IMG/VR virus record: IMGVR_UViG_3300025929_000014
Location: 1-64,000 of that record
DNA length: 64,000 bases
Source: a virus
Strand: one strand, 5' to 3'
The notes below the pieces were generated by a model that did no database searches, was not told where the DNA came from, and was given only the letters and a program-made list of their open reading frames with translations. Positions 15,935-51,676 of this stretch are shown here, in pieces. The position numbers and the translations under genes are program-made. Position 1 is the first letter of the stretch, and each line of letters begins with the position of its first letter.

Positions 15935-16162
15935 TTAGGCGGCGGCGGTCGCGTCCTCCTCGTCCAGGGCGGCGAGCATGGCGGCGGTCGCGTCCTGCCA
16001 CGTCTGGCGGATGGCTTCGAGCAGGCCGGTAGCCGCTGGTAGGGTGGCGCCCGCTGGACGTGGGCGGCTCATGTACTCTTCGATGAGCATGCACAGCAAG
16101 GAGGCGTCCATTGTTGGGGCTGGGCTGATGGGGGTGGCTGGGCTGATCGGCAGGATGGTCAT
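15935..16162 (-). CDS. Early hypothetical protein
   Basis: AAGGAG SD after promoter cassette 1. Confidence 0.6.
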   Translation of the reverse strand: MTILPISPATPISPAPTMDASLLCMLIEEYMSRPRPAGATLPAATGLLEAIRQTWQDATAAMLAALDEEDATAAA

Positions 16163-16265
16163 GGCCTGGACTCCTTGGCTAGCGGTGCGTCTCACTGACT
16201 CTAGTATGCGGCTGAATGTCTCCCCCTTGCAACATTCGCGCTACAAGGGGGAGACGGTCGGCGGC

Positions 16266-16469
16266 TTAGCAGCGATGGTAGTGGTACGCGTCATTCGCTT
16301 GGCGTGTCTCGCGCTGGATATTCGCCCAGCACGCGTTCTGTGCGTAGCAGGCCATGGTCGCCTCGTCCATCGTGCGCACGACTATGGGGCGCTCGATTTG
16401 GAGCGTATCGACCACGATGTAGACCGTGCGGAAGATCCGGCGTGACATGCGGACGGTGAAGCGTGCCAT
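16266..16469 (-). CDS. Early hypothetical protein
   Basis: AAGGAG SD after a cassette. Confidence 0.65.
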   Translation of the reverse strand: MARFTVRMSRRIFRTVYIVVDTLQIERPIVVRTMDEATMACYAQNACWANIQRETRQANDAYHYHRC

Positions 16470-16580
16470 GATGTTGACTCCTTCGCGCTGGGGAGGCGTC
16501 TCATTCGCGCCTCACATTCCCTACTATGGGGGTGGAGGTTGTCCCCTTGCAACATTGGGGTGTTGCAAGGGGAGTATGGT

Positions 16581-16787
16581 CTACGACGCACGGCACGGTT
16601 TGCCGTCTGCGTCGGTCAGATGCACGATGAACTCCCCCTCGCGATATCCGGCACGTATGGCCGCAATGCGCGCCTCACGCGAATACTTGAAGAATCGTCG
16701 CGCCCCACTAAGCCCCCTCAGATAGCGCCCCTCGACGGATTGGACGATGAAGCCCTTAGTTGGCGTGCCCGCAAGTGTATAGAACAT
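16581..16787 (-). CDS. Early hypothetical protein
   Basis: AAGGAG SD. Confidence 0.6.
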   Translation of the reverse strand: MFYTLAGTPTKGFIVQSVEGRYLRGLSGARRFFKYSREARIAAIRAGYREGEFIVHLTDADGKPCRAS

Positions 16788-16839
16788 GGTGTGCTCCTTG
16801 TGGTCCGTACGGCCGGACCTACGCCCCTATCGTGCTCGA

Positions 16840-17154
16840 TTACTCTGGATAGACTAGGCCGGTGATGGTGGTGGCAATAATGACGGTATCTTGATCGTAG
16901 CTACTCACCTCGACGTGCATCGTGCCACCGGTCGGCGCGTCCAGGGAATATTCGGTGATGTAGGACATGATCTCCTTGGCGGATAGGCCGTCAATGCTGA
17001 GGTAGAAGCCGAACCCTTGCAGCGTGATAGCAGGCTCAAGATGTACCGGACCTTGCCCGCGCTGTACCGCGATGCGATGCGCCGCATTGGAGACTTCTAG
17101 CGCGAATGTCATAGCCGCGTGAATCTGTACCTGAGCGCGATTCTCGATTGCCAT
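16840..17154 (-). CDS. Early hypothetical protein
   Basis: Start revised to the ATG after AAGGAG. Confidence 0.65.
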   Translation of the reverse strand: MAIENRAQVQIHAAMTFALEVSNAAHRIAVQRGQGPVHLEPAITLQGFGFYLSIDGLSAKEIMSYITEYSLDAPTGGTMHVEVSSYDQDTVIIATTITGLVYPE

Positions 17155-17251
17155 GGTCTTGACTCCTTGTGCCGTTGTGGAGGCGTCTCGTCCGCCCCTC
17201 ACTTACCACTATGGGGGAGGATGTCTCCCCCATACAACATTCGGGCTGAGG

Positions 17252-17488
17252 CTATAGCGCTTGCGCGTCCGCATACACCTTTAGATCGGTGTAATAGCCG
17301 CTCAGATTGCCGCCGTCGGTCATAAGGTTACGAATCATCTTGATCGCCCGCTCTTGCGCTGCTGCCTCATCACGTAGGCCGTGTATGTTGGCGTCCAGCG
17401 TGAAGGTTGGCACTTGCCGCGTACTCGTCCAGCCGTCCGAACGCGTGCAAACTATCTGTGCAGTGATCCGGTACTGTGTGGCGTCCAT
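17252..17488 (-). CDS. Early hypothetical protein
   Basis: GAGGAG SD after a cassette. Confidence 0.65.
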   Translation of the reverse strand: MDATQYRITAQIVCTRSDGWTSTRQVPTFTLDANIHGLRDEAAAQERAIKMIRNLMTDGGNLSGYYTDLKVYADAQAL

Positions 17489-17582
17489 ATCTGGTGTGCT
17501 CCTCGTGTGCTAGTGGCCGGTCACTGTTGCCGTCCGCATTCCCCATACTGGGGGAGCATGACTCCCCCCGTCAACATTCAGC

Positions 17583-18158
17583 CTAGCGAATCCACACACC
17601 GTTATCGTATGCTGCTACTTCCGTAGCCGGTCCCCATGTGCCTCGTACTGGCATGCGCCAGACTGTCACCTGTCCGCGTTGTGGCTGTGACTCGCTGGCT
17701 TCCTGTGCGAATGTGCGCGCCTCCTCCTCAGTCGCAAACCACGCGGGCAATCCTGCACTAGTCTCCATCTCGCCTGAACGGTTGTACACCGCATACTCGA
17801 CGTTAGGCGTAGGCTCGTTACCGTCCGCGTACTCGTCCATGCTATCCATGGCGTGTCGGCATTCGCCCGTGCTCAGGTGACAATACGGCTCAATTTCGGC
17901 GCATACATGACGCGGACGGCGAGCCGGTGTATTCGCAAGCTCGATAGCCTTCTCCTGTGCAATGGCGCGCAAGGCGTCCGCCACCTGTAGCATAACCGTG
18001 CCTGCTACCAGAGACGCCATGCCGGTATCAGGATCTCGCTCCTGTACGTTCGCCATGTTGTCAGAGGCGAGCGTAAAACGGTCGTCATAGCAGGATAGCA
18101 GCACTAGCGCCGCTGCTAGGTCGTCCAGACAATCCGTCGCGATCTTGATGAATGCCAT
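17583..18158 (-). CDS. Early hypothetical protein
   Basis: Start revised to MAFIKI after GGAG. Confidence 0.6.
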   Translation of the reverse strand: MAFIKIATDCLDDLAAALVLLSCYDDRFTLASDNMANVQERDPDTGMASLVAGTVMLQVADALRAIAQEKAIELANTPARRPRHVCAEIEPYCHLSTGECRHAMDSMDEYADGNEPTPNVEYAVYNRSGEMETSAGLPAWFATEEEARTFAQEASESQPQRGQVTVWRMPVRGTWGPATEVAAYDNGVWIR

Positions 18159-18266
18159 GTCATGTTCTCCGTCTCGCTCGTGGCCGGTCAGCGCCGACCT
18201 GTTCCCAGTATGGGCCTTGTGTTGCTCCCCCACAACATTCGCGTTATGGGGGAGCCGTCGCATTGT

Positions 18267-18800
18267 CTATGCACTCCTGTGCTTAGGCTGGCACCATTCC
18301 GGCATGGTCAAACCGTACTCTTTAACGATAGCTCGCCGCCTCTGTACGCGTTGCCGTTGCGCTTGCCTATCCTCACGCCGGTCGAATCGCCGGTTATGTG
18401 CGTTGCGTGCGCGCATCTTCTCGTATTCACCGGAGGCGTGCTTGGCTTCATCGTCCGCGTAGGGTTCAGGACGGCAATCCTCACATTCGCACCATTCGCG
18501 CTGCTCAAGATCGTCGCTATCCTTGGTACATATCGCGTTGAAGATGATGCGATGGCAACAGTCGCAATAGGTGATGCGCAGATCTTCGTAGTTGTCGGTA
18601 TTCAGGAGCATATACCGGAGAGAACCACCCGGCTTGATACGCATACCAACGATGCGCGGATGGTCGCCATCCCAATCTTGCGTCCAAGGGTACAAGGAGT
18701 CGAAGCACGCATGACAGACGATGGTGTTTACGTCGTGGTCCGAACGGCTGTAGTCTGTGCGGATGCACTCGAACGCGTCGATTGGGTAGAGGCGTGGCAC
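18267..18800 (-). CDS. Early Cys-rich hypothetical protein
   Basis: GTG after AAGGAG. CxxC motifs and a basic C-terminus. Confidence 0.6.
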   Translation of the reverse strand: MPRLYPIDAFECIRTDYSRSDHDVNTIVCHACFDSLYPWTQDWDGDHPRIVGMRIKPGGSLRYMLLNTDNYEDLRITYCDCCHRIIFNAICTKDSDDLEQREWCECEDCRPEPYADDEAKHASGEYEKMRARNAHNRRFDRREDRQAQRQRVQRRRAIVKEYGLTMPEWCQPKHRSA

Positions 18801-18890
18801 GGTCGTTCTCCTTCTCGCTTGGGGGAGAAGCTCGCTTGCCCTCCCCACACTTCTAACTATGGGCCATCGGTTTACCGGATGCAACATTCG

Positions 18891-19082
18891 CTACAGACGT
18901 ATGGTGTACTCAATAGTGGGCGTGCCCGCGCCGGAAAGGTCGAACCCGCGTACTTCCGCCTCGTCGTATCCGCCAGTGTCTATGGCAGATCGCGCTGCGC
19001 GCTTTGCATCCGCCAGTGTCGCGTAGGGTGAAAGGTCTTCTACCAGATTACCATCTACAAAGAGCCATACTTCATATTCCAT
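18891..19082 (-). CDS. Small acidic early protein
   Basis: GAGGGGAG SD. Confidence 0.6.
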   Translation of the reverse strand: MEYEVWLFVDGNLVEDLSPYATLADAKRAARSAIDTGGYDEAEVRGFDLSGAGTPTIEYTIRL

Positions 19083-19096
19083 CGGTCGATCTCCCC

Positions 19097-19321
19097 TCAG
19101 ATAGAGCCTTGACATCGCGTGCATGTCGCGCCGTCCAGCGTAACCGGCATGTAATGCCAGTGATTGATCTCTCCTCGCTCCCAGTTACGTGGGTGCATCA
19201 CCGCGTCTCGACATGGCTTGCAATGCACTTGCCCGCTACCATCAGGTATCTGGATATACTCCATATTGCCGTCGGGATGTGTGACCAGATCCAGGTTTGC
19301 CGTCATGTATGCTGCTGCCAT
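19097..19321 (-). CDS. Small Zn-binding early protein
   Basis: Two CxxC motifs. GAGGAG SD. Confidence 0.6.
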   Translation of the reverse strand: MAAAYMTANLDLVTHPDGNMEYIQIPDGSGQVHCKPCRDAVMHPRNWERGEINHWHYMPVTLDGATCTRCQGSI

Positions 19322-19387
19322 CGGTCGATCTCTCCTCGTGTGGCCGGGAGCTTCATCCTTGCGGAAGCTCCCACATCGCGACGTGTG

Positions 19388-20116
19388 CTATGCCTCTGGA
19401 TGGCGCGAATCGTAGATAACCTCGTTGTTGTAGCTATCGCCAGATGGGCACATGTAGCGAACCTGTACAACCACGTCCGCGTACTCAGGATCTAGCGCAA
19501 GCTCTTTTGCATGCGAGATGGCGTCGTCTTGCTCGCCGTCCTGATACTCTCGTACCCGCATGGCCGGTCCACATCCGTACTGAAACCTATCGTAGCGGTC
19601 CCATTTTTGGGGGTTTTTGTTGGCGAATCTCTCCGGTACTGCGACTACCATCAGGCAATCTTGACCGAGCCGGATTAGCGCTTTGCAATCGTCGCAGTAG
19701 ATGGCGTGCTCGTAATCCTGGATGTGCGAATAGCACACATGCAGATCATCTGGGCCAAGCTCGCCAGCCATCAGCGCCTTACGTGCGCAATCTAGGCACA
19801 TCTCCTCACCATTGCTGTTCAGATCCGCCACCCAATCGCCGCTGATCTCAAGGTCGTCGTAGCCAGAGAAGCCGACATTGCGCGAAGACCAGCCGTAGGT
19901 CTGATTGTCCAGTAGTGCGGTGAGATTACTCACAATCTGCGCGTAGGTGGTGTACTTGCCTTGCGCGTCGATGTAGCGATGCCATTCGGGCGTCTGCGTG
20001 CCCGTCCATTCGACCTTGCGCGCTTCCATCAGCTTGGCGTAGCGGCCTGCCTGTAGGGCGGCCATGTGGCGCGTGTGGATGGCTTGCTGGCGGTCAGTCT
20101 TCTCGATGGCGGCCAT
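19388..20116 (-). CDS. Early hypothetical protein
   Basis: Start revised to MAAIEK after AAGGAG. Confidence 0.7.
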   Translation of the reverse strand: MAAIEKTDRQQAIHTRHMAALQAGRYAKLMEARKVEWTGTQTPEWHRYIDAQGKYTTYAQIVSNLTALLDNQTYGWSSRNVGFSGYDDLEISGDWVADLNSNGEEMCLDCARKALMAGELGPDDLHVCYSHIQDYEHAIYCDDCKALIRLGQDCLMVVAVPERFANKNPQKWDRYDRFQYGCGPAMRVREYQDGEQDDAISHAKELALDPEYADVVVQVRYMCPSGDSYNNEVIYDSRHPEA

Positions 20117-20210
20117 GGTGTGTGCTCCTTCTTGCGTCTCGCGCTCCGTCGTTCGGTGCGCCTCACATTCCCCATACTGGGGGTGTAAGGCGCATGCCGT
20201 CAACATTCGA

Positions 20211-20483
20211 TTATGCCTTGCGTGCTATCTGTTCGGGATAGAGGCTTGCGCGCCATGTCGTGTAGGGATGCTCGACACTGCCGTATGTCGCGCCGTCGAA
20301 CTCCACCAATACAAAGCAATGTCGATTGCCCCTCACTGGCGGTACGTCCGGGTTTATGACGCGTGCCGTCTGGCCCTTGCGGAGCCATTGCGTGGGATTG
20401 CCAGCATAACCGGAGTAATAGGCTTCCACATCGGCACCAACGATCACCACGTCGCCGGGTTGTAGCTGTGTCCGTCGCACCAT
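20211..20483 (-). CDS. Small beta-rich (SH3/KOW-like) early protein
   Basis: LQPGDVVIV...KGQTARV...VLVEFD. Confidence 0.5.
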   Translation of the reverse strand: MVRRTQLQPGDVVIVGADVEAYYSGYAGNPTQWLRKGQTARVINPDVPPVRGNRHCFVLVEFDGATYGSVEHPYTTWRASLYPEQIARKA

Positions 20484-20541
20484 GGCCGTTCTCCTTCTAC
20501 CAGAGGGAGCCATCCAATGTGGCTCCCTGTCAACATTCGAT

Positions 20542-21186
20542 CTACTTCTTCGCGCACTCTGGCCCCATGCCCCTGTTCAAGCTCGCCGGTACAGTCAGCG
20601 TGCGTCCACATCGGCAGCACTGCCCAGACTCCATGGCGTATGCCTCGCCGTACTTGGCTAGCTCCTCGCTTGTCGCGCCGAACAGGATAGCGACTGCCGC
20701 CTTTTGCCGCTCGTAGCCGTTCGCATAGTTGCGCCAGTAGCGTAGCGTGCCATTAGGCTGGATATCGCCCATGCCGGTGTAGTCCTGCTCATTGTTTGAT
20801 CCTGAGAGATAGCTCAAGACCATGTGGCCGGATGCCTTGCCGTTCCACTGGCGGACCCGCAATGTGACATGGCTTCCATCGGGAAAGGCGACGGTGTAGT
20901 AGCCTTGCGCTACTGTGCGGGTTGTCTCGATGGCTGGCGTCGATGGCGCATCCGCGTAATCGGCCAGTGTAACCGGCGCTATGGGGGTAGCCGCCTTGAC
21001 GATGGCAAGTGACCATCGGCGGAGTACCTCAGCCGCCTTGTCAGCGGCGAGCCGTTCGCCGTCCATCAGGCTGCACGCGAAGCCGTAGGCTTCAGGCCAT
21101 GAGTACATATCCTCTGCGGACCATTCGCCGCCGATAGCTTTCGCTATCTTGGCCGCTCGTTCTGGGCTGGCAATCACAGATGCCAT
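20542..21186 (-). CDS. DUF6011-domain protein
   Basis: C-terminal SGQCCRCGRTLTVPASLNRGMGPECA. Confidence 0.75.
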   Translation of the reverse strand: MASVIASPERAAKIAKAIGGEWSAEDMYSWPEAYGFACSLMDGERLAADKAAEVLRRWSLAIVKAATPIAPVTLADYADAPSTPAIETTRTVAQGYYTVAFPDGSHVTLRVRQWNGKASGHMVLSYLSGSNNEQDYTGMGDIQPNGTLRYWRNYANGYERQKAAVAILFGATSEELAKYGEAYAMESGQCCRCGRTLTVPASLNRGMGPECAKK

Positions 21187-21268
21187 GTTCGCGTTCCTTC
21201 CGACTAAGTGCGGCATCCGTTCGTGCCGCACTTCCTACTATGGGCTATCGGTTTACTGGGTGCAACAT

Positions 21269-21781
21269 TCAGACGATATGTCGGCGGACCTTGCACATTC
21301 TGGCGCTGTTGTCCAGGCTGATGCGGGAGTCTACGATAAACCGCATACGCTTGGGCTTCTCAGCCGTGCCACGCGTGATGATTAGGTACAGCATGTCATG
21401 ATGCAGTGACGCATCGTTAAGAAGCTGGTTGTTGTTCCCGGCCATGTACTCGACCGTTAGCTTGTCGCCCACCTTGAGCAAATCAATCAGCGCGCCGAGC
21501 GTTCCCAGATCGTCGTACTTGTAGCGGGTGACGGAATCCACAGCAGCGTACACCTCGTAGCATCCATAGTCGTCGCCTAGATCCCCCTGATAGCAACGCG
21601 TAGCGGTTACTACGTTAATGCGATGGCGTTGCTCCCATGGGTTCTTGTCGTCCGCCTCCTTGTAGGCTTCGACATAAGATTCGTTCTTGTCCCGGTCATA
21701 CCGGAAGATCGCTCTATCGCATGTCTTGAGCCGTGCGATGTCTTGGGCGGTGATGGCGTAGGGCTCCTGGTAGGCGTCCAT
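21269..21781 (-). CDS. Early hypothetical protein
   Basis: CAGGAG SD after a cassette. Confidence 0.7.
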   Translation of the reverse strand: MDAYQEPYAITAQDIARLKTCDRAIFRYDRDKNESYVEAYKEADDKNPWEQRHRINVVTATRCYQGDLGDDYGCYEVYAAVDSVTRYKYDDLGTLGALIDLLKVGDKLTVEYMAGNNNQLLNDASLHHDMLYLIITRGTAEKPKRMRFIVDSRISLDNSARMCKVRRHIV

Positions 21782-21801
21782 TGTGCTGTACTCCTGTTTG
21801 A

Positions 21802-22560
21802 CTAGCGGCGCGTCGTTCGCGCCTCACATTCCCCATACTGAGGCTTCCGTTGCATCCCGTCAACATTGGGCGCAAGATCCGTCATCATCCAGACGGAGAC
21901 AAACGGCTCCGGGCTGTTGTCCAGGCCGTAATCGTGCGGCCAGTCTCGACCAGTGATGAAGGATAGTGCATGTTGGCGACTAGCGCCCTCGTGGCGTGTG
22001 GCGAGCTTTGCCATTTTCTTTACTCCTCGTCTTCCTCTTCAACATAGGGTGTAGGCTCTGGCAGCGTTTCGATGTCTACCGGCTCCTTAGTGCAGAGCCA
22101 GACCTTATACTGAAAGCCGTTCTCTCTTGACATGCCGCGCTCTCTTGCGTTGTAGGCAAAGAACTCTGCTACAGAGTGCAGATCGGCTCCCGATCCTTCG
22201 CTGCTGTAAGCTCGTGCGTATCCGCTGACGTTCATATGCTCCGGCCAGAAGATCATCGCCTGATACCATTCTGTCTTTGCCATTGTCCTACTCTCCTACA
22301 GGCTTGACGGCGAAAGAGCCTATCCGGTTGCCGTTGACATCGCGCAAAGACTCCGTATGAAACAATGGCCGCTCGATGTAGCTTGTATGCTGCAAGCCTC
22401 CAGGCTTCGGCGTACATGCCACCCTATGGGGCAGGAGAGAGCCAGCGTAGTCCGCCTCCAGCCGTCTGGCTACCTCGCGCAGTGTGCGCGCCACGTCTCG
22501 ACCCGTCCGCATCATGTCATTGCCAAGCTCGATTGTCAGTGTAAACTCTACGTCTTCCAT
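21802..22560 (-). other. Three small hypothetical CDSs (21802-22014, 22020-22283, 22288-22560)
   Basis: Tightly packed with SDs. The first reads through promoter cassette 10. Confidence 0.6.
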
Positions 22561-22621
22561 CGTCCTATCCCTTCAGGTGAGGGAGCCAGTGTTAGGTCTG
22601 GCTCCCATTCTTGCAGCGCGA

Positions 22622-23035
<414 letters not shown>

Positions 23036-23090
23036 GGTCCTCATCCTCTCGTATAGTGGGCGGTGACTCGTTCGCCTCGCCCTGACACTC

Positions 23091-25874
23091 TCAACTATTG
23101 GCCTTGCGTTGTCGGGATGCAACTTTCAGCAAAGACTCGTAATTGTGCAGAGCATTCTGGAGGTGCCGCGTAAAAGCGCGCTGTTGCTGCTCCAGCCCCT
23201 CGATCTGTACCATCGCGGCGTCACGCAGCCGTTTCAGACCATCGCACACCATCTGGTATGCTTCGGCGTCGTATTCAGCCAGGTAATACATGTTCTGGGT
23301 GAAACGCTCGTATGTCTGATCCAGGTGGTAGTACGCACCCCTGATGCCCTCAGCGTTGATTTGCGACCGGAGTACGGCAGTGTACAGGGGGTGATCTACA
23401 ACTTTCGGTCCAGACTCGTGCCAGTTCTTGTATTGCTGGCGCGAGGCGCGTTGACGTTGCCGCTCGCGCCGTCGATGTTCACGCATGGCTTCCTGTCCTC
23501 TCGTTAGGCCGTCGCACACAGGGCGTGCAGTGCTTTATTTGCACTGTCGATGGCTTCCGGGATTAGCTCCGCGATTATCTCGCGGATGTAAGGATCGTCT
23601 GCACCTTCGGCCTCGATGTTGTGTAGGCTGTCATAGCCAAGCTCGATCCCGGCGCGACTGGCTGTGACTGTCACGTAGTAGTAACTGGCTTCGCGATCTC
23701 CGGCGCAGTATTCCATATCGCGCCGTCTGGCGCGTTGCTCCTGTAGCCATGCCTGGTGGCGCGCATAACCCCGTTCGGAGGCGTACTTGGCTATGCCCTC
23801 GCAATTCGGGCTGTAGTGATAAGGCGCATGGCTTTCCCAACTGCGCCAGCTACTATAACCTCCTTCTGCATGATGCTTAGGATTTACCAGACTTCCAGGC
23901 TGCCATGTGTCGGAGAAATCACCACAACACTCGTCAGGCTCCGGGTACTCCTCGTAGTCAACTTTCACCTTGATCTGAAAGCCGTCGCGCTCCATGCGCC
24001 CATGATCGTCCAGGTCTTCGAGCAGCGCATCAATTCGCGCTCGATGCCGGATACCATCTAGAGCATGCTTGGCTGTGGGAATGTGATCGCCGTCCGGGCG
24101 ACGTGCGCGCTTGTAGGCCGCGTAGCTAATTGCCGTCATTTTCGTTCTCCGTTAGCCGCAAGTAGATGCTCGCCATCTCAGAGAGAGGCATAGGCCGGAT
24201 AGTCTCCTCTTGAAAGGTGATCTCGTAGCCAAACTCCACCGGATGCGTCTCAAGGCTCAGAAGCCACCACTCGACCAGCTTCTTCTCCGCGTCTGGGTCG
24301 CCCCACGATACAATGCGGGTGGAATGGACTAGCTCGCCGTACTTGTTGTGGATGTAACCTACAAAGTGCGTCTCTGGGCTCATAACGCGCTTCCCTCTTT
24401 ACTCAGGGGCGACTCGTTGCCGCCCCGACATCACTTACTCTGAGCCTTACTGTTGTTCCCCGTCAACATTCCAGGCATAGTCCTTGATTTCGGCCATGGT
24501 TTGTAGGACAGCGATCAGTTGATATGGTTGCGTGTACGGCAGCTTCAGCAAAGCACAGGCGGTGTTTGCCAGATGCGCGTGCATGCCGTCAAGAATACCG
24601 TCGTCCTCCTGCCCGCTCTCGCGAAACCTATCTGCATAATCCAGAGCGGCCTTGAGATCTTCACGCACCTGGCGAGCACCCGCACCGTCACAGCCCCAAG
24701 CACCCCGCAACAGGACGAAAATACGCCCTCCTAGCACTAGCTTGCTCATGTGTTTGTCCCCAACCAGGCATCCAACATCGACATGAACGCATGGCGATTA
24801 GTCAGATCCAGGCAGCAGGCATCCTCCAGGCGGATAGGATCGCCGCTTCGCATCGAGAAGAAGGCTCGCAAGAGAAAGGTCGAGCCATGGCTGAGGTAAT
24901 CGAGATCCACCAGCCGAATCTTGCGGTAGGGGCGCTCTGGGGTCATATCCTCGATAAACCCCTTCATCATCTCTGAGTGCTTCAGGAGAGCGGCTATCGC
25001 AGCCGCCTCCCGGTCGTCGTTGTAGTAAGCGCCTTCAGTGATGGGCTCGTAAGGAAATCTATTCATGATGTTGCCTCCAGACGCTTAAACAACTCAGGGT
25101 GGATCTCTCGCGCTTGCTGTTCGGAGATCCGCTTACACACGTCGCGTAGCCAATCTACGCTGACGGAGCAACCACACGCAGGACTATCGGCGTGAAAGAG
25201 TACAGCCGCAACGCACTCGATAAAGTAGGTTTGATCATTCCAGAAGCAATGATTGCGGTCTGGGGTGCCGTGTTCCGTCACTGGTATAGCGACCACGTTG
25301 CCGGTGTGCTTGCCCTTGCGCTTGTCTTGCGCCGTCTCGTGCTCAAGATAGAATCGCCAGCCGTTCATGACTCATCCTCCACGCACCCATAAGGGACATC
25401 CCAGTTACCCGTATCGCTGGAGAACTCAATCACCTGCCCGCACTTCGCGCAAGTATGCGTGTAGCTGTAGCCATTCGGTGATTCCCAGTGCTCAGGGAGC
25501 GGGGTATGATCGGAACGCTCGACCTCGTGCCGGATAGCCTCGATGGTTTCCAGCGTCTCTTCCCACTCCTCGTTCGAGAAGTCGTCTTCATCCGCATAGA
25601 TGTGGTCATCAAGATATTCCTGCCACTCCTGCGCGGCTTCGACGGCTTCCGTATTCGCCGGGTCCACCAACACCGTCTCAACCCAGCCGACGAGATCATG
25701 CCCTGCTTCCTCGATTGCGATTGACTCCGGGAAGCGTTTAAGAAGATCCGCATGGACCACCCGGAAGTTCGAGCGCCCTAACGCCTCGCTGTCCCGATGC
25801 TTGCCTATCACGATCAACCAGTCCGCCCTGTCACCCCAGTAAGCGAAGTTCTGCTGCTTGGCTACCGCTAACAT
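23091..25874 (-). other. Seven early hypothetical CDSs (23091-23486, 23504-24139, 24126-24383, 24447-24749, 24746-25066, 25063-25368, 25365-25874)
   Basis: Coupled start/stop overlaps and SDs. 25365-25874 carries the HRDS..SNF...GWVE motif that recurs in phage early genes. Confidence 0.65.
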
Positions 25875-25967
25875 AGTCGTTGCTCCTTGCTTGTTCGCGT
25901 CGCCCCGTCGGCGTCGCCTCACATTCCCTACTCTGGGCCTGGAAGGCGACACCCGTCAACTTTCGAT

Positions 25968-27317
25968 TTAGTAGTAGACGTAGCAGCATGCCTCGACGGG
26001 CAAACCCAGCGCCTTCAATCGCGTAGACACTAGCTCGCACTCAAAATCCAGATAAAGATCTCCCACAAGCGACAGGTAGGAATCGAAGTCGGTATCGCGT
26101 AAGTCTTCTTTGCCCTCCGCAATCGGCATATCGACTACCACCTCGAACGCGCCCGGATCGTATTCCCCCTCGCAGCCCGGAGGAAAATACTTGAGTTGCA
26201 AGCAAGCATCTGTCAGACGCCCCAGCCGCAAAGCTACCTCGCGTAGTTCACTCTCCAGGGCAGGATGCGCTGCGATGAAGGCATCCATTTCTTCGGGAGA
26301 GCCGTACTCACTGTCATCGGCGTACAGGCCATCAAGCACACGTCGCATCATCATGTCGAGTAGCTCTCCCCTGCCTCGTCGGTAATGTGCTCAGCATAAA
26401 TCTCATCATCCAGGTTCATGCGATACCAGTCGCATTCCTCAGCCATCGCTCCGGCCCATGCACCCAGCCGTTCGCGTAGGGCTTGCGCGCTATCGGCCTC
26501 CACCTCCAGAATGCCGATGCTGACTTCCTTCTTGAGAAACTTGACAAAGAACTTAGCCATAAACAATTTCTCCCAATACCGCACATTGGAGGAACACATC
26601 GCCGGTCTCAGCGTCCTCGTTCTCTTCCAGGAAGTGCGCGAGATGCCAGGGATACTTCTCAGCCATCACCTGGAAGCCGCGCTGAATGGCAGCGAAATCG
26701 AGCGTATGCGGGGTCTTCTGGAAATCATCCTCCTCGAAGACCGTCACCGGCAGGCGAAGCGTGTCGCCATCAATGGTGTAGGGACGGCGATCACCGCTAG
26801 ACCAGTAGTGCGAACCCCCCTCGTAGGCGCAGCAGAGCAGGTCCACGATGCGCTTCTCAGGTATCTTGAGCAACACTTCAGCTATCATTCTCGTCCTCTT
26901 CTCTCAGCCTAAATCACTGTTTGGCGCGTGTCGGCGCATAAGGTTGTAGCCACAGCTATGGCTGGGCGCTCGTCGCACATACTTCCCTGGCACCAGATAG
27001 AGCAGGTCTGCGGCGTCCACATCGGCCCCAGCTTCAGGGTCATAGAGGAAATCGTTGAGTGCCGATGGCACCTCCCACAACGTCCTGGTCGATTCCTTGT
27101 AGCAGAACAGTTCGCTGTCGCCACCAATCCCCCACATGTCCTCGAAGTCCCAGACTACCCGGCACTCCAGGCCAGTCAGGCGCTCGATGTCGGCCAGGAC
27201 GGAATCTACATCGTCGTCGGTATGGCCGTCCGCAAACGTGCCGCGAAGCTCCTCAAGCTCTTCGATACGCTGCTGGCGCGAGAGCGATTCATCGTGTGGC
27301 ACCATGATGTCGTGCAT
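25968..27317 (-). other. Acidic early CDSs (25968-26354, 26351-26560, 26553-26888, 26904-27317)
   Basis: Coupled ORFs. 26553-26888 ends DAETGDVFLQCAVLGEIVYG, a widespread phage early-gene motif. Confidence 0.65.
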
Positions 27318-27318
27318 G

Positions 27319-27558
27319 CTATTCCTCCCACTTCAGGCAGGGATACATGTCGTAAGATGCAGGCTCCAGCAGGCTGACCCCCTCGACACCGAAGTACGTA
27401 CAATCCTCTTCGCTCCAGGTAGTACCAGGATCACTGTTACCGTCCGTCTCCATTGCCAGATCATGGGCGTCACCGGCATCATAGTCGTCGGGCACCTCTA
27501 GCTCAAAAAACCCCGTTCGGACAATCGTCTCCTTGATCTCCACCCGGTATCGCTTCAT
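27319..27558 (-). CDS. DpnD/PcfM-like small protein
   Basis: MKRYRVEIKETIVRT..EV....A. Confidence 0.5.
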   Translation of the reverse strand: MKRYRVEIKETIVRTGFFELEVPDDYDAGDAHDLAMETDGNSDPGTTWSEEDCTYFGVEGVSLLEPASYDMYPCLKWEE

Positions 27559-27671
27559 GACGTGCTCCTTTAACTGCGTCGAGGGGAGTCCTGAGAGGAA
27601 CCGCTCCTTCAAGCGTGCTCCCCTCGACAGTTACCATGCTGGGCCTTGAAGTGGTCAGGGCGCAACTTTCG

Positions 27672-28268
27672 CTAGATGGCGTAGGCTTTCACGCGTTTTG
27701 AGAGATTCTTGCGCTCCTTTGTGACCAGAGTCTCCAGGCCGCGAATCTGCTCGTACCAGGCAGATAGCGGCTGCGCATTATACGTCAGGACGGAGCAGTC
27801 AGGGAATCCCCATGCGCCGCGATTCCATAGCGTGCCCGTTGTAAAGTGCGCGTAGAGATAGCCATCTTCCTGGAGCGCGATTTGATTGGCCTCAGCGATA
27901 GAGAGCGGCTGACCCTGCTTTTGCATCTCGCGCACCATCTTGGCGCGAATCTTCTGCGCTTGCATTACTAGGTCTCCTTAATGACTGTAGGCGGTAATGC
28001 GTGAGGATAAGTAACGATGGGGTACGCTGCTCTGCTGCTCATGCTCATCAAGCGGCTTATCGTAGTAGACCAGCACGGAGAAGTCAGGAAAGCCCCAGAT
28101 GCCCCGCTCGTAGCCGCCAACCGTGAGGTAATAGCCGAAGCGAATACCGCAATCGTTCCGCCTCGTTGCATACCGATGCACCTCTGTACACGAGAGAATC
28201 TCTCCCCGCTGCTTCATCTCCTTGACCACTTTGGCTCGGACCACCTGTGCGCAGGACTGTTTAGCCAT
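27672..28268 (-). other. Tandem paralog pair (27672-27965, 27978-28268)
   Basis: Both share AQ..RAK.V.EM...G..LS..E and RG.WGFPD.SVL.Y..PL. Confidence 0.8.
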
Positions 28269-31200
28269 CCTCGCCCTCCAGCAGTTGCACGGCAGCCAGC
28301 ACAGCCGCCAACAGGTCTCTAGGGTCGGCGCTCACGTCCATCAGAATATCGTTGGTTGCCTGCTTGAAGCGCTCGATACGCACGAGCGGATCGTTCGGCG
28401 CCCGGTACTCAATCTCATCGGTGATGCGCTTGCCATTCAGCGAGACGGTGACTTGCACGCCGCTCACGCCTATGCGGCTCACGCCGCAATGCTTGATCGT
28501 CGCCTTCAAGGTTGGATACACGGCATACCAGGAGGCTTCCTCATTCGGATAGCCATGATCCTCGTCGTCGTTGGTCCACTCCTCCACCAGATAAGAGCCA
28601 TCGGGGGCAGGCCCCAGCACGTCGATGGTATGTTGAGCGACCGCCTCCTCATCGCTAAAATGGGCCATTCTGACAAATGCTGCCCGGTCAAGGGCAATCA
28701 TCTCCTCGTTAGGACTCATCATTCACCTCCTCTACCGCGTCGAGCATCAGCACGCCGACATGCGTGGGATCACAGTCCCCCCAAGTAATCTCCTCGTCGC
28801 CCGACAGCGCTAAGGTTTGCGCCTCCTCCGGCGAATCGGCCTCGATATAGACGTGGCCGAACTCTACAGCCTCTATGGAAACCTGTACTCGAAACGTCTT
28901 CTTGCTCATGTGTGACCTCCTTCCCTACAGCTTCCATACTGGGCGTAGATGTTGTAGGGCGTCAAGTTTCAGTTGTATGGCAAATCGTAATACTGCACTT
29001 CGTCGGTCACGTCGATATTCTTGCGCCACGGAAAATCATTGGCGCATGCAGCCTTCTCCCAGTAAGCACCCCTGAACCACTGGCTCACACGCTTGGCCTG
29101 GTCGCAGTAGTAGCGGTAGCGACGCTCGACCTTACGGCTATCGCTGTCGTAGTTCATCTGCTGGCACCAGTCCTCAAACCCAGTGCCGGGATACTCACGC
29201 CAGCGCTCCAGGACTTGATAGAGCACATGCTCGACGAAATCCGGCCCACCATCGCTTCCAATATCGGCTCGATACAACGTGACCGTCAAACGCCCCTTGG
29301 TATCGCCGCGCCGGAGGACAACCTGAACCCACTTGAAGGCATCATAGTCTGGATCGCTCCAGGTCTCCTTATCTTCCAGGTTGCCGCGCAGGGCTTCAGG
29401 CGGAAGGTCCACATGCTTCGCGCCGATCACCTCTATCTGGTGACTAGCGATGAACTCAGCCAGCTTGCTCATCGGTCGCCTCCAGGGTCTTCGGCTTGCG
29501 TGCGCGAGGCTTGCGGACAGGTAATGCGGTAGCGGCCAGAGCCAGCGTGCCAGCCAGCGCCAGGTCGGCTTGTGTCAGCTTGCGGGCGCGAGCCTTCTTT
29601 GGGGGAGGCGCGACCAGCGCCTCTAGGGCTGCGATGGCCTTTTGCTCGGCCTGCTGAGCAGCGAAGGAATGGGCGCGCTCATGGGCGCGAGTGATGTAGT
29701 CGTACTGGCCAGGACGATAGGGCTTGTTTCTCATGGTTGCCTCCTTGGCTTAGCGCTCACTTCAATCTGGAAATAGAGATCGCGTTCATAGTTGCCTAAG
29801 ACTATTCCCCTCCTTGCGCACTCCGTCATGGTGTCCCAGGAAGTGAGATGGATGCTTTCCCCTGGTATAAACACATGGCCGTTGAATGTGAATCCTTCAC
29901 CAGCAGTGGATAAAAAGCATTCCCACCGGTAGCAGTCCTGCTGGGCGTGGCTCCAGTAGCCTGTGTTTGCTCGAAGCTCGTCGGCCTCGACCTGGATACC
30001 ATGTTCTCGCAGCAGGGCAGCCAGCTTCTCACGAGGCTTCATTGTTGAGAGCCTCAGCCCTGCGCTTGGCTCGAACGGCACGGAGAATCAGCATGCCGGG
30101 TCCGTGCTTATTCGGTACGTAATTACACGGCACCAAGTCGTTCTCCGGGTCGGCAATACAGTCACCGCACGCGACACCAACCTGACCGAAGAACTCCGAA
30201 TCCGTCAGCCGCCAGCCTCGACGCTCCAGGTCACGTAGGAAGTCAGACGGCATACCGCCCATGTAATCCTCTTCCTCGATGCCGCAGATTGAGCACTCGA
30301 CACGCCAACGGCAGATCGCCAGGTCGCGTTTGACAGAGAGCTTACCGATCATCTGGATTTGCCTCCTCCCATATCTCTTGCGCCTCATCCTCAATAGACT
30401 GAAGCGCTGCGTAGAACTCGTCCTCTGAGAAGGGATAGGCCAGATCGTGTGGCGTACAGCAGGCATCACTGCCCTCGACGATGGAGCCGACGGTAATCCC
30501 AGCTCGCTTCAAGGAGGAGTGAATGAGTATGTTCACCGTGCAGAGATGCTTACCAAGGTGAGGAGGAGACCACAATTCTACTACCGCAGAGGCGCGCACC
30601 TCAGCCATGCTCATACCAAGTTCTTCCGGCAGCCTGAGCAGTGCTTTGGTCGGACCAAACCAGACGGGAGACGACGCGCTGAAGTAGAAGACCAGATCCT
30701 CCGGCGTCTCCGGCGCGTCCATCCCACGCCATTTTCCATAACGGCCTCGCCGCCACTGAACAGCGACCGGACCTCCAATACAATCACGACAATCTACGGT
30801 GAACGTGATGCGCTCTTCGATGGGGATCGTGAGCGGATCGAACGAGATCCAGGCGCCGCAATCGGTGGACTTGTACACAACGCGCTCGATACGTTGTTCA
30901 AGCGGGTAGCTCTCCGTAGCATCCTGCGGGTCGATGCCCAGCGCCGATGCCAGGTCGCGAAGGTTCTTGATCATCGCCCCTCTTCCCTAATCTGCGCCTC
31001 TACGGCATCCATTTTGTCCTGGTCGGCGCGCACCTGATCGTATTCCGCCAGCTTGGCGCGCACCACATCCCAGTCGGCCATATCGAAGTGCAACGTAATG
31101 GAAGAGATCGCCAGACGCTCGACCATGGTCCGGCTATGTTCATAGTGGGGCAGCAGAGCGTCAGTAATGTTGCCGAACGCGCCGTAGTGCTCATCGACAT

Positions 31201-32768
31201 CGGCATGGCCCAGCCATGCCAGGTTCTCATCCAGCACACGCAGGACATCCCGATCATGCTCCGTCTCATCGCCAAGCGCGACACGCTCACGCAGCTCGAT
31301 GATCCACTCCACGAGAGAGCCGGTTGCTGCCTGCCTGTAGTCGTAGTAATCCATGTCGCTTCCTTTCCTGTGGGGCGAACCGCTCGCCCCTGGATTCCAT
31401 GTTGGGGGATCAGGTTGTGGGGGTGCAACTTTCGCGATAGATGGGTTCGAGTATCTTGACGCCCGTCAGATGGAAGAGCGCGATATGCCCGCCCACAAGC
31501 TCGCGCCCATCCAGATTGGTGAAGTGCTCCTGTGTACGGGGGTTGTAGCGGCAGTGCGCCTCGCTTTGATGCAGCGCGGACGTGAGGTAGGCCAGATGGC
31601 CCACGATACCCGCATGGACTGACTTTCGTCCAGTACGCAGCACGCGCTGTCGGCCAGCTTCGGAGACGCGGAAGGCAAGAGGGCCATAGATATGAAACGT
31701 CCGCATATGCGCGATGACTCTCCCGCTCCGAGTGCCGGTCAGGGCCTTGACGCTCCAGCAGTCCTGCCGAAGATTGCGGTAGACGTAGACTCTGCCTTTG
31801 CCGGGAGCGTACTCCTCGTAGTCGTCTTCGGTGAGCGGGCCGATCATGCGTCCCCCCAGTCGGCAAGACAGTTAGGGTAGTCGGCCACATCAAGCTGGGC
31901 ATAAATGATGTTCATGTCCACCGTCTTCAGGGCCTCCGTCAGGAGATACAGCGCCGTTCGCCCATACTCCAGATCCTCGTAGTTTGACACCAACTGGCGA
32001 GACAGAGCAGAGATATGCTCGGTGCCGCATCGAACCCGGTGGATGGTCCGCAGTAGCTCCGTCGGCATCTCTGTGCTTAGATCGGTTGCTACGGCCTGCG
32101 CCAGAACGTCCGTCGCTGCATTCATAGCATCTCCCTTTCGTAATAGGTGCCATAGAACTCCTGCTGCTGGGTCTCCATGTCGTCCTGGTCAGGCGTCGAT
32201 GGAGGCAGCGCGCCCTCATATGCCTCATTCTGGAAGCAGGTGTGGCAGAGCAGGCTCGGCAGCTCGTCTTCGGTGTAGTGCCATACGTCGGACTGCGTAG
32301 TGCGGCAGTCGATACAGCGCACCAGGCGCGTGTAGCAGCGCTTGCAGATGGCGCCCCCGTCGATGGGGTGCGTGCGCCAGCCTGCATTGACCGCACACAG
32401 GGCCAGTTCTGAGGCAGTGTTGTGGTCCGGGTCTTCAGCCGCCACATAGTTCGTGCGGTCGCCGTCGCAATACTCGCAGTGGATGACCAGCAGGTCAGCA
32501 TAGGCGGCATCGGCCAGCAGGGTCAGGTCACGGTCAGCGCTCATGACAGCCTCCCGTCGAGCGCGAGATGGAGCATGTCGCCAAACACCTCATGGCTACG
32601 ACGCGTCTGCTCATCCTGTTGGCGGAACGCCATCTGCTGGAAGTCGGTCAAACTCTCAACCTGCTCGCGCAGACGCCGGATCTCGCCGGCCATCATCTGC
32701 ATGGCGTCAGCCTGGGCGCTCACTCGTGCAGTCTGCTGCAAACAAAACTGCCATTCTTCGTCGTTCAT
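28261..32768 (-). other. Early hypothetical CDSs (28261-28722, 28709-28909, 28969-29472, 29456-29734, 29731-30042, 30029-30352, 30342-30974, 30971-31354, 31410-31847, 31844-32125, 32122-32544, 32541-32768)
   Basis: Coupled ORFs with SDs. 28969-29472 has FEDWC...YDSDSRK and 31410-31847 has VYRNL..WSV..FRVSEAGRQRVLR, both recurrent phage families of unknown function. Confidence 0.65.
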
Positions 32769-32825
32769 TTCCTCTCCTTTCGGCTACATTTCCAGCATGG
32801 GCCTTGCGTTGTCAGCGATCAACTT

Positions 32826-33494
32826 TCAGGCTGGGCTGATACCGGCAGCCGTGCGGATGAAGTCGCCGGTCGGGATACCATAGAACTGCATCTGCCCACC
32901 CAGCGCCGGAAGGAGCGGAACTTTCAGCGCGCCTACCCGGTCGTAAGGCGGCGCGGCCAGCACGTTGTACCAGGCAGGGTACGCGTAGTCAGAGAGCCAA
33001 TACTTCGAGCCGTTGTAGGCGAAGCCGTCTTCTGAGGGGCCGGTGGGATCGGCGACCTCGCCCACCACGTTGACGGGGCTGCCATTGATGGTCTCCGGGA
33101 ACGCGCTGCTCATCTGCGGATCGACGGTGGATTCCACTACCTCATGGCTCGCCGCCAGGAGCCAAGAATCTGGTAGGGCCGCAGGATTGATCGCCACATA
33201 GGCAATCGGCATACCGTTTTCCTGCGTGTGATAATCGCCCTTGTCAGCCGTCAGCACGACGATAATCGGCACCGGCAGCAGATGCCAATGTTGCGCTACA
33301 TCCGTCTGAAGCCACGCCCGGAGGATCTCCTGACCGCGCAGGGCATCATCAACCGATACCCGATCCGGCACCACCGTGACGATATACACGGACGGCCTCG
33401 ACGATGTGGGCGCGCTCAGAGAATCAGGAAGCCAGGGGCAGGTGAACGCAGCCAGGAAGACCAGGGCCGCATAGAGGGCCGTTTTACGCTTCAT
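32826..33494 (-). CDS. Secreted zincin-like protein (HExxE..DP / GEVAD)
   Basis: Signal-like MKRKTALYAALVFLAA, then ASHEVVESTVDP and GEVADP. Confidence 0.55.
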   Translation of the reverse strand: MKRKTALYAALVFLAAFTCPWLPDSLSAPTSSRPSVYIVTVVPDRVSVDDALRGQEILRAWLQTDVAQHWHLLPVPIIVVLTADKGDYHTQENGMPIAYVAINPAALPDSWLLAASHEVVESTVDPQMSSAFPETINGSPVNVVGEVADPTGPSEDGFAYNGSKYWLSDYAYPAWYNVLAAPPYDRVGALKVPLLPALGGQMQFYGIPTGDFIRTAAGISPA

Positions 33495-35736
33495 CGGACT
33501 CCTGTCCACCCATGCCGAGCAGCTTGATGCCAGAGACAGCTTGCGCCAGGTTGACAGATTGCGCCGGGATGAAGAGCAGACTCTCAAGGCGCTCCTTCAG
33601 CGTGGCGACCAGGGCTGCCAGTTGTTCGAGCGCCAGCCAGGTCTCATCGCTATAGGGCAGGTAGATGACGGATGCGTTCACTTCCGGCTTGTACGTGTGT
33701 TCATAAAAGGGATTGCAGGGCGGAGCGAAGGGGCCGCTCTTCTCCTCGTTCCAGTAAAATATCGACGAATGTTTTGTCCGGCTATCCGCCTTCTCATGCG
33801 GCCAGCGAACCTCCCAGCCGCTCTCCCGATAGCCGCCATGCGGCACTTTGGCCACGTAGAAGCGCTTGAACTGAAAGGCTATAGCCCGGTTCTTCTGGCC
33901 GGAATGGTCATACGGTTTATCGACTTTAATCACCGGCACCCATTCCAGGTCGTCCATGCGGTCCAGCTCGGCGCGCACCTCTTTCATTAGGTCGTCGATG
34001 CTGCGCGCGTCAATCTTGACACCGGCTATGGTGGCGAAGAAGTGCAGGTCGTTGCGGTCCAGGAATAGCTCCACCTCGCCGTAGAGGATATGCCGGAGCG
34101 TCTCCACCTTCTGGGGTTTAAGTTGTCTAGCCATTTGTGTTCTCCTCAGCCCACTCGGCGTCGTAATGGCGTTCGGCGCGCTCCACGACATCTTCCGGCG
34201 AAATGTTCTTGGTGTCACACCAGTGCATGATGTTGGCGATCAGGTCGGTCGCCAGGGATTCCAACTCGCTGTCGTCGGAAACCTCATTCAATGACTGGCC
34301 ACCATACGCATGCTGCGCGAAGGCTTCCAGGGCGGTGATAACAGAGCGGGCACGCCCCTCGTTGGTCAGTACGTTGCCATTCTCATCCATGTGCGTTCTC
34401 CTGCTCATATTCATAATTCTCACGCGCTAGCCGAAGCACGCGCTCGGTGTCCATATTATGAACCTGGCACCAATGCAACACGTCGGTGATGAGGTCAGCC
34501 GCCGCACAATCACGGTCGTTAGGAAACATCTGCATAAATGTAGGGCTGTGCAGCTCTAACGCCGCCTGTACACGCTTTGCGGCAGTCTCCGGTGTCTGTG
34601 CATCTTCATCCATGTGCGTAGACCTCCTCTTCTCTTAGCGCGTCGTCAGTCGTCGCGCCTTCTGTTTCCATACTGGGGGTTGAGGTTGTCAGGTTGCAAC
34701 TTTGGGCGCATGCAGAAGCGAGTCCGGCCAGCATCTCATCGCGTGTGATATTGATTTCCGACCACAGCAGATCTTCACAGAGAAAATCATCCCAGGCTCT
34801 TGGCGTATCCAGGCGGCTTGCATACACGCTATCATTAAACGCCTCAGCTGCTAGCCAACCACACGTCTCCAGCATGTACTCATAGAGCGCCGTTGGCATG
34901 CCCAACGGCCCGCGCTGGAAACGATGTTTCTCCGGCTTGCTCTCCACCCAGCGCCGGAAGAGGACGGGATTATAGACCTCAGCCAGGATAGCTTCGATTG
35001 GGGGCACCTGTGGGCGCATGGCGTCAGCTTCCATCTGTGTGATGCTTCAGGATACGGCGAATCTCCGTCGCGTTCGTCCCGGCGTGCAAAGCGGGATCGG
35101 TAAGCTGTGCCAGTCGGTGTTCTAATGCGATGACGGCCAGCACCACGATGCGCTCCGTCTCCTCGCCGGAGAAGTGCTCGTGCTGTAATTCCTGCGGCGC
35201 ATCCTGCCAGAGAAAGTTGTCCCAGCCGGACGTATTCATATCGGCCAGCGTATTGCGAATGGGATCTTCCTGATCGACGTTATCCGCAGACCAGTAGTAG
35301 AGGTATTGGCCGAGATAGGCTCCGGCCTGGTCAATGAGATTTCCCCTTGTCATAGTGTTCCTCCTTCTGCTCTCTTACCTCTGTCGCTCGTGCTTTGGTT
35401 GGCTCCCGATGCCATTTGTCGTCGTCTTCATGCGCCTGGAAGCGCTCGACGAACCTCCGGGCCTGCTCAGGACTGTCGGTCTCCACATCGTGAATCGTAA
35501 TGCCCTCGTAGACGACCCTAAAGAGATGTACGGAGTATTTCTTGGTCATAAGGCTCCCAGGTAGTCGTCTCGCTCAGCAGCATGGCCATCCCCCAGTCGA
35601 AGACCAGCCATACCTCTCCCGGTCTCCAGGCGGTGTCAACTTCCATCAGCGTGCCGGCACAGCTTTCGCCATTCGTCGTGACCAGAATCTCGTGGTCGAT
35701 CAATGCGCGCCAGGGCGCCAGTTGTTCCTCGCTCAT
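33484..35736 (-). other. Early hypothetical CDSs (33484-34134, 34127-34390, 34383-34613, 34606-35034, 35024-35353, 35331-35549, 35518-35736)
   Basis: Coupled ORFs. 34127-34390 and 34383-34613 are paralogs sharing DLI...HWC. Confidence 0.65.
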
Positions 35737-41093: not shown

Positions 41094-41178
41094 ATGCTAG
41101 CCCCCACTATAAGCCTGGACAACATTTTTGTAAAGTACACGGTAGACTATTGCATTTTGTCTAGTTATCCCCTATGAT
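41094..41178. promoter_or_regulatory. Divergent sigma70-like promoters
   Basis: Minus strand: AATG-TTGTCC-N17-TAGCAT (41122-41094). Plus strand: TTGCAT-N17-TATGAT (41150-41178). Confidence 0.6.
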
Positions 41179-51663: not shown

Positions 51664-51676
51664 AAGGGGACGAAAG

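Follow-up and report, generated by a model that had tools for sequence, protein, structure and literature searches.

Predicted promoter modules with operator-like palindromes in the small-gene array of an apparently temperate phage

The DNA analyzed here is the first 64 kb (64,000 nucleotides, the window) of the IMG/VR virus record IMGVR_UViG_3300025929_000014, a genome of 105,786 bp rated complete by CheckV, and the subject of this study is a short repeated element, called the module below, which recurs throughout a leftward array of small genes. The phage looks temperate, because a tyrosine integrase is encoded at 8600-9796. From approximately 41.1 kb down to approximately 15.9 kb, the minus-strand genes run leftward through a D5-type primase-helicase gene (37660-40038), a series of small genes and the array. 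The replication and recombination genes are transcribed rightward.

The array contains approximately 56 co-directional small genes, about 47 of which are preceded by a module and grouped in units of one to six genes. A Pfam family was found for three of the 56 proteins, namely an L5 gp82-like protein (31410-31847), a DUF6011 protein and a protein with a helix-turn-helix (HTH) typical of small terminase, and the PHROG matches were few and nearly all unnamed. The protein of a single-gene cassette (21269-21781) had no homologue among 5.8 billion proteins. Paralogy within the array was limited to two tandem pairs at 27672-28268 and 34127-34613 on the minus strand (35% and 31% identity), with no module between the partners.

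The heptamer AAWGTTG occurred 37 times in the window, compared with 7.1 ± 2.8 times in shuffled sequences. The strict bipartite forms AAWGTTG-N21-CAnnnT and AAWGTTG-N20-CAnnnT were found ten and six times, respectively, when 0.06 and 0.05 copies were expected, and together gave 16 copies versus 0.11 expected. Of these 16, 15 are minus-strand copies located between 16203 and 34703, demonstrating that the minus-strand set of elements claimed in the original prediction, made from the letters of the window alone, was real. The array has 18 modules once a variant with GAAACTTG (28969) and a copy lacking a -10 element (20537) are added, and five more copies lie outside 16150-34710 (Table 1); modules are located here by the first A of AAWG. 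The transcribed strand carries 22 of the 25 AAWGTTG copies at 15.9-41.2 kb, and the density of the heptamer was 0.99 per kb in the leftward operon versus 0.18 per kb in the late region.

Alignment of 22 copies showed each position of A-A-W-G-T-T-G to be kept in 20-22 of them. The two A's, the TTG, the A at -11 and the T at -7 were invariant, the last three being in line with sigma70 promoters, as is the spacing of 17 or 18 nucleotides (nt) between the two elements. The G before TTG, the CC before the -10 element and the G two bases past it were each kept in 18-20 of the 22 copies. The -12 position was mostly C (18 of 22), and the array -35 elements kept TTG and varied in the bases after it. 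Each module spans 55-112 nt and begins with the AAWGTTG box, whose TTG is the -35 element, followed by a GC-rich 17/18-nt spacer ending in CC and by the CAnnnT -10 element. Downstream of it come RG, a G-rich discriminator, a GC hairpin 1-6 nt into the predicted transcript, an AAGGAG-type Shine-Dalgarno sequence (SD) and ATG. The combination of -35 and -10 elements at this spacing with an SD and ATG was present in 17 of the 18 modules, and the leaders were 42-52 nt long in 11 of the 18, with SD and ATG at the typical distance. The two halves of the array differ. From 34.7 to 21.9 kb, GAAAG-type modules, mostly carrying a palindrome described below, head translationally coupled units of three to six genes, and from 21.9 to 16 kb GAATG-type modules head one to three genes, several of them with CTCCCCC/GGGGGAG hairpins over the promoter.

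The upstream genes had been claimed to end at the GAAWG motif, and this was indeed the case, as the distance from the stop codon to GAAWG is -2 to +9 nt for 11 modules of the array and 23-28 nt for three. The TGA stop overlaps GAAWG at 21269, 28969 and 32826, and likewise at 40538 outside the array. Five genes had instead been described as reading into a module and taking their C-terminus there, and all five were confirmed: 21802-22014 (tail ...YGECEARTTRR), 23091-23486, 24447-24749, 31410-31847 and 34606-35034, whose last 8-33 residues are encoded by the module. The structural interpretation given earlier, of a promoter, a leader hairpin and an SD abutting tightly on the upstream gene, thus appears to hold. 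If the modules are promoters, upstream coding sequence could run up to or through the box, since nothing upstream of -40 would be needed.

The stability of the leaders was compared with that of background windows from the same region. The 32 nt past the predicted start had a median folding energy of -11.0 kcal/mol, compared to -5.6 kcal/mol in the background (Mann-Whitney p = 1.6e-5), and a predicted fold of -9 kcal/mol or lower was obtained for 13 of 17 modules versus 14.5% of the background windows. Single leaders were not extreme, as the z-scores of whole leaders against shuffles were modest (-2.9 to +1.1). Six of the 18 modules, all of the GAATG type, form a hairpin at the -35 element or in the spacer (-19 to -38 kcal/mol). 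A role of the hairpins as terminators was rejected: none of those in the 18 modules has a U-tract, terminator-like matches on the array strand were not above shuffles, and U-tract terminators are present elsewhere. The leader hairpins would probably stabilize, mark or help process the 5' ends of the mRNAs. Three intergenic spacers on the minus strand (16788-16839, 19322-19387 and 22561-22621) have a GC hairpin and an SD without a promoter box, indicating that the hairpin tracks gene starts and not strictly promoters.

An AT-rich divergent control region lies at 41040-41880. Its canonical promoters, which have T at -12, are TTGCAT-N17-TATGAT near 41150, for a gene encoding an HTH-PKD protein (41217-41732), and TTGACA-N17-TAGAGT near 41841, and a canonical U-tract terminator lies at 41762-41786. 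The module-class promoter at 41789 and the canonical one near 41841 form a predicted rightward tandem. The presence of canonical T(-12) promoters and U-tract terminators in this region indicated that the module class is separate and that its hairpins are not ordinary terminators. A generic sigma70 scan missed the array modules.

We consider it reasonably probable that the modules are one sigma70-type promoter class, probably gated by a regulator, which drives the accessory-gene array of a temperate phage. The number of bipartite motifs, their conservation, strand bias and fixed geometry, and the stability of the leaders were counted in favor of this reading. Initiation would most likely be due to the host RNA polymerase with its primary sigma factor, since neither sigma region 2 (Sigma70_r2) nor a T7-type RNA polymerase was matched among the phage proteins; the control search for the T7-type family was likewise empty. 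The array is probably expressed early, as it lies downstream of the primase gene in the leftward operon, whose start is at the divergent control region. Anatomy, statistics, strand bias and ORFan content are observed properties of the array, from which we infer promoter activity, its timing, a regulator and a function of the hairpins.

Table 1. Positions of the modules, related motif copies, palindromes and associated genes in the window
Feature	Position	Strand	First A of AAWG	Description
Module 1	16163..16237	-	16236	GAATGTTGCAA-N18-CATACT, leader, SD; before gene 15935-16162; hairpin with 16-bp stem (-37.6 kcal/mol) engulfing the -35
Module 2	16470..16557	-	16556	CAATGTTGCAA-N18-CATAGT with GTTG-N8-CAAC; hairpin over the -35; leader hairpin and SD before gene 16266-16469
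Module 3	17155..17242	-	17241	GAATGTTGTAT-N18-CATAGT; hairpins in spacer and leader; before 16840-17154
Module 4	17489..17579	-	17578	GAATGTTGACG-N18-CAGTAT; spacer hairpin; before 17252-17488; upstream stop 3 nt ahead of GAATG
Module 5	18159..18240	-	18239	GAATGTTGTGG-N17-CATACT; palindrome class; hairpin over the -35; before gene starting at 18158
Module 6	18801..18889	-	18888	GAATGTTGCAT-N17-CATAGT; similar to module 9 (87% over 45 nt); upstream stop 1 nt ahead of motif
Module 7	20117..20208	-	20207	GAATGTTGACG-N18-CAGTAT; exact 22-mer in common with module 10
Module 8 (atypical)	20484..20538	-	20537	GAATGTTGACA, 9-bp hairpin, SD; -10 absent at 17/18 spacing; possibly a promoter that has decayed, or a unit with just operator/hairpin
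Module 9	21187..21270	-	21269	tGAATGTTGCAC-N17-CATAGT; TGA of 21269-21781 overlaps GAATG
Module 10	21782..21868	-	21867	CAATGTTGACG-N17-CAGTAT; palindrome class; within 3' end of 21802-22014
Module 11	23036..23127	-	23126	GAAAGTTGCAT-N17-AATAGT; palindrome class; within 3' end of 23091-23486
Module 12	24384..24471	-	24470	GAATGTTGACG-N18-CAGAGT; palindrome class; within 3' end of 24447-24749
Module 13	25875..25964	-	25963	GAAAGTTGACG-N18-CAGAGT; upstream stop 3 nt ahead of motif
Module 14	27559..27670	-	27669	GAAAGTTGCGC-N18-CAGCAT; longest leader, hairpin -30.5 kcal/mol
Module 15	28910..28970	-	28969	tGAAACTTGACG-N18-CAGTAT; short leader without hairpin; TGA overlaps motif
Module 16	31355..31433	-	31432	GAAAGTTGCAC-N18-CAACAT; palindrome class; within 3' end of L5 gp82-like gene 31410-31847
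Module 17	32769..32827	-	32826	tGAAAGTTGATC-N17-CATGCT; palindrome class; short leader; TGA overlaps motif
Module 18	34614..34704	-	34703	CAAAGTTGCAA-N18-CAGTAT; palindrome class; within 3' end of 34606-35034
Stand-alone sigma70 region-4 protein, 87 residues	35737..36000	-		Same leftward operon, ~1 kb upstream of array
Motif copy outside array	40505..40539	-	40538	tGAAAGTTGACA-N18-GATATT; ahead of primase operon
Predicted leftward promoter	41094..41127	-	41126	AAATGTTGTCC-N17-TAGCAT; divergent control region
Rightward module-promoter copy (predicted)	41789..41822	+	41790	GAATGTTGACG-N17-CAGTAT; directly after the canonical U-tract terminator
Rightward variant	48252..48286	+	48253	GAAACTTGACA-N18-CATCGT
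Operator-only palindrome (putative)	48571..48586	.		Inside 48313-48627
Predicted rightward promoter	48954..48987	+	48955	AAATGTTGACA-N17-TAGAGT; AAWGTTG box with canonical T at -12
PD-(D/E)XK nuclease and AAA_24 ATPase	49015..51029	+		Possible recombination module of the phage
Operator-only palindrome GTTG-N8-CAAC (putative)	51676..51691	.		Intergenic, no -10
Operator-only palindrome (putative)	56189..56204	.		Inside RNA-ligase gene
Perfect 22-bp palindrome AATGTTG-N8-CAACATT	59570..59591	.		No -10; clearest full putative operator

The evidence for a regulator came from a palindrome overlapping the box. GTTG-N8-CAAC was found 17 times in the 105.8-kb genome, approximately 1.3 copies being expected, and the other spacings from N4 to N13 each gave zero to three copies. 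Eight array promoters carry it exactly, and two further ones fit with one mismatch. Seven sites have no -10 element (48571, 51676, 56189, 59573, 85491, 98500 and 103485 in record coordinates), and two exact sites without the AAW flank lie inside the capsid gene. The sites at 98500 and 103485 flank a late gene for a protein of 1641 residues. These palindromes point to a dimeric DNA-binding protein with a half-site coinciding with the -35 element. The conserved bases that exceed a plain -35 element, together with the palindromes, would then be the site of a dimeric regulator from the phage or the host, which is predicted to switch the whole set of modules together, like the repressor-operator or stoperator systems of actinophages.

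An alternative without any dedicated regulator would be that the modules are plain strong promoters, in which AAWG merely extends the -35 element upstream and is contacted by host RNA polymerase, through its alpha subunit or sigma region 4; the palindromes would then be coincidental. The position of the box is fixed in every copy with a -10 element, no repressor gene was recognized among 20 candidate proteins, and the early promoters of T4 have an extra consensus without a dedicated regulator (PMC2988021), all of which fit this alternative. The excess specific to N = 8, however, is hard to explain by polymerase contacts, as are the seven palindromes without a -10 element, some of which are intragenic. 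A temperate phage must moreover silence approximately 20 promoters in the lysogen. We therefore regarded plain promoters as unlikely, but not negligibly so.

A candidate for recognition of the box is encoded close by, in the 87-residue protein at 35737-36000. It matched Sigma70_r4 in Pfam (3e-7), with support from NCBIfam, and its best matches among solved structures were region 4 of RpoD/SigA. Its recognition helix is SAERIRQMEAKALRKL, with Ala at the position of an Arg that contacts DNA bases in primary sigma factors. No gap is left in front of the gene for a promoter of its own, as the space is taken up by an 85-residue gene (36004-36260). That open reading frame, on the minus strand, has an ATGA overlap with the upstream stop and no NCBIfam match. 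We take the region-4 protein as a candidate binder of the -35/AAWGTTG box. With rather low probability, the modules may thus be factor-dependent (delayed-early or middle) promoters, the free region-4 protein binding AAWGTTG, replacing or competing with host sigma region 4 and turning the array on or off. The family and structural matches of the protein, the location of its gene just upstream in the same operon, the retention of TTG with variable bases behind it, and the non-canonical C at -12, suggestive of dependence on a helper, are in accordance with this mechanism. Against these stand the module copies at 40538 and 41790, located where the region-4 protein would not yet be made, and the HTH-PKD protein, which is an equally good candidate. 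Binding of the region-4 protein to the box is itself only predicted, and small proteins with a sigma-r4-type HTH, which need not target -35 boxes, were found elsewhere, by weak matches only.

Several points also weigh against a regulator-gated sigma70 class. The start sites are predictions from sequence. The C at -12 is atypical for a primary sigma factor, and the class could be factor-dependent or belong to an alternative sigma; the -10 element was compared with the general primary-sigma consensus, which may not be that of the host. Module 20537 has no -10 element, and the CAAC half-site is missing from eight array modules, so that a dimer model leaves some copies uncovered. When the 20 candidate regulator proteins were scanned against Pfam, no repressor family was found, and DNA-binding domains were detected in two of them, the HTH_17-PKD protein and the Sigma70_r4 protein. 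Three other identities of the motif were tried and discarded. It is not the LexA/Cheo box GAAC-N4-GTTC, the distance from GAATG to CATA (24 nt) is too long for sporulation-sigma promoters, and its bases do not fit the attC core site GTTRRRY.

The original prediction had gone further and proposed that the motif is a fixed recombination junction for cassettes, comparable to the promoter(early)-stem-loop (PeSL) elements of T4-type phages (Arbiol 2010, PMC2839356; Comeau 2014, PMC4122927). The likeness in function stood. In both cases many copies of a composite element, consisting of a sigma70-like promoter, a stem-loop, an SD and a start codon, lie directly after an upstream stop, co-oriented with the genes and concentrated in an ORFan-rich accessory region. 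The likeness in anatomy did not, since the PeSL stem-loop is an effective terminator, with an AT-rich tract, upstream of the promoter (PMC4122927), whereas the regular hairpin here is in the leader, downstream of the -10 element. Among near-identical phages, PeSLs have been shown to mediate indels and mini-circles, whereas no relative was found for the present phage, which is apparently temperate and is unrelated to T4.

If the modules acted as PeSLs do, they would be both promoters and preferred crossover points, at which exchange between short homologies deletes, inserts or swaps ORFan cassettes and may release circles. The scarcity of Pfam families in the array is in keeping with this, and in the six distal modules the promoter is accompanied by a strong hairpin, bringing them nearer to PeSL anatomy. 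The phage also encodes a PD-(D/E)XK nuclease and an AAA_24 ATPase, presumably with a role in recombination and of the enzyme type that exchange between short homologies requires. Within module subfamilies, GAAWG is the exact starting point of the similarity, which links flanking genes that are unrelated, as for modules 18888 and 21269 (87% identity over 45 nt, 18845-18889 versus 21226-21270) and modules 23126 and 32826 (82% over 33 nt); modules 20207 and 21867 have an exact 22-mer in common. The description of such pairs as near-identical was therefore right as to their relatedness and somewhat overstated as to its degree, the in-register identity between modules having a median of 45% and the longest exact match being 22 nt. 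These low values themselves speak against exchange. Conservation was limited to functional-looking positions (AAWGTTG, CAAC and CCCAnnnTRG) and the spacers and hairpins diverge, so there was no sign of homogenization between modules. Cassettes bounded by modules were no more uniform in composition than random contiguous partitions (p = 0.42 for GC content and p = 0.52 for GC at third codon positions), the paralogue pairs are not separated by modules, and no related genome was found in which a breakpoint could show. The internal evidence on a recombination junction was thus mixed and mostly negative. We lean against such a junction, and shuffling of the PeSL kind was judged quite improbable here.

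A distinct integron-like system, in which a recombinase would cut at GAAWGTTG to capture or excise cassettes, had been suggested as well and is extremely improbable. The cassettes are co-oriented and bounded by a short conserved motif, and the phage has a tyrosine recombinase, which accord with the proposal. That enzyme, however, is the sole recombinase among the proteins scanned and belongs to the generic phage integrases: with the Xer/integron-integrase model, whose cut-off is 220 bits, it scored 50.7 bits. Its gene and the array are approximately 6 kb apart. Unlike integron cassettes, all cassettes here have a predicted promoter of their own, no long imperfect palindrome resembling attC was seen, and Rfam found no family. 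Copies of the motif are also present on the opposite strand, at predicted promoters of core operons. The claim found no support. There is a slim chance that AAWGTTG/GTTG-N8-CAAC is the target of the free region-4 protein, as a competitor or surrogate at the -35 element mimicking a sigma domain at approximately 20 promoters, and that the modules are also microhomology crossover points assembling ORFan cassettes. On balance, the array appears to be a phage control array of an ordinary type, and none of the results shows it to be a gene-shuffling device.

The design of the proposed regulator-gated promoters is, by analogy, a familiar one, seen in T4 early promoters, PeSLs and the stoperator-associated promoters of actinophages. 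The repressor-stoperator systems of L5/D29, R4 and phiJoe (PMC12266134, PMC10276819) also belong to temperate phages and have many short oriented sites, which resemble or overlap -35 elements and lie in short gaps between the genes of the early arm; certain of these sites act as promoters. A member of the L5 gp82 family lies in the present array. Stoperators are, in contrast, asymmetric 13-bp sites, mostly without a -10 element, which stop elongation, whereas nearly all copies here have a spaced -10 element and roughly one in two forms a 16-bp palindrome; the 20 candidate proteins scanned included no recognizable gp71-like repressor.

The temperate phage phiC31 reportedly has several highly conserved early promoters and a conserved inverted-repeat operator in its early intergenic regions, similar to the multiple conserved early-type promoters and the putative repeated operator described here. 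Its early promoters are said to be unlike the sigma70 -35/-10 elements and to be separate from the operator, whereas the putative operator half-site here is the -35 element itself. In the host-takeover module of SPO1, dozens of promoters with a consensus richer than that of the host drive short operons of small takeover or accessory genes with strong SDs. The early and middle classes of T4 (PMC2988021) likewise comprise dozens of promoters with a consensus richer than that of the host, in front of short operons of small takeover or accessory genes with strong SDs. T4 and SPO1 are lytic, unlike the present phage, and at T4 middle promoters the MotA box, read by a phage activator, replaces the -35 element, whereas the TTG is kept here and extended upstream. 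The unusual points of the array are the C at -12, the operator fused to the -35 element and the nearby sigma region-4 protein.

Relatives of the phage were sought in phage, IMG/VR, GTDB and metagenome collections by DNA comparison, protein-seeded searches and motif scans, and none was found. When the 19-kb region was compared by megablast with 50,697 phages, nothing matched, and the primase and capsid protein as queries in IMG/VR revealed no relative. The best foreign match of the primase among 5.8 billion proteins was 37% identical, and the capsid protein was 34% identical to those of Thermoanaerobacterium and Alicyclobacillus phages. Alicyclobacillus phage MMB025 (105 kb) was considered as a distant relative and dropped, as its gene content is quite different, including its own DNA polymerase and sigma factor. 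The exact 21-mer motif had no match in IMG/VR, a looser pattern gave only chance singletons among the matches listed, and a 34-bit pattern gave two chance matches in IMG/VR and 12 matches in GTDB genomes, all of them lacking further modules. With the gp82-like protein as an anchor, six short low-GC contigs (38-51% identical) without modules were obtained from metagenomes.

The modules provide a clean promoter/operator consensus, based on 20 copies, for a phage lineage without cultured or sequenced relatives. Its uses include the annotation of transcription units, guesses at the preferences of the host polymerase and the design of binding and transcription assays. If the region-4 protein does read the box, this would add a novel mechanism by which phages control recognition of the -35 element, and if module-to-module junctions were to show in sequencing reads, PeSL-type shuffling would extend beyond T4-like lytic phages. 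The proteins P0001, P0018 and P0019 are each recorded on two contigs, the longer of which has 105,889 bp, 103 bp more than the present record, indicating that this phage, or one nearly identical to it, has been assembled a second time. Within the array, a run of GAC/GAG codons at 22850-22900 in gene 22622-23035 (minus strand) encodes an Asp/Glu-rich tract (repeat family D18) in a protein of 137 residues.

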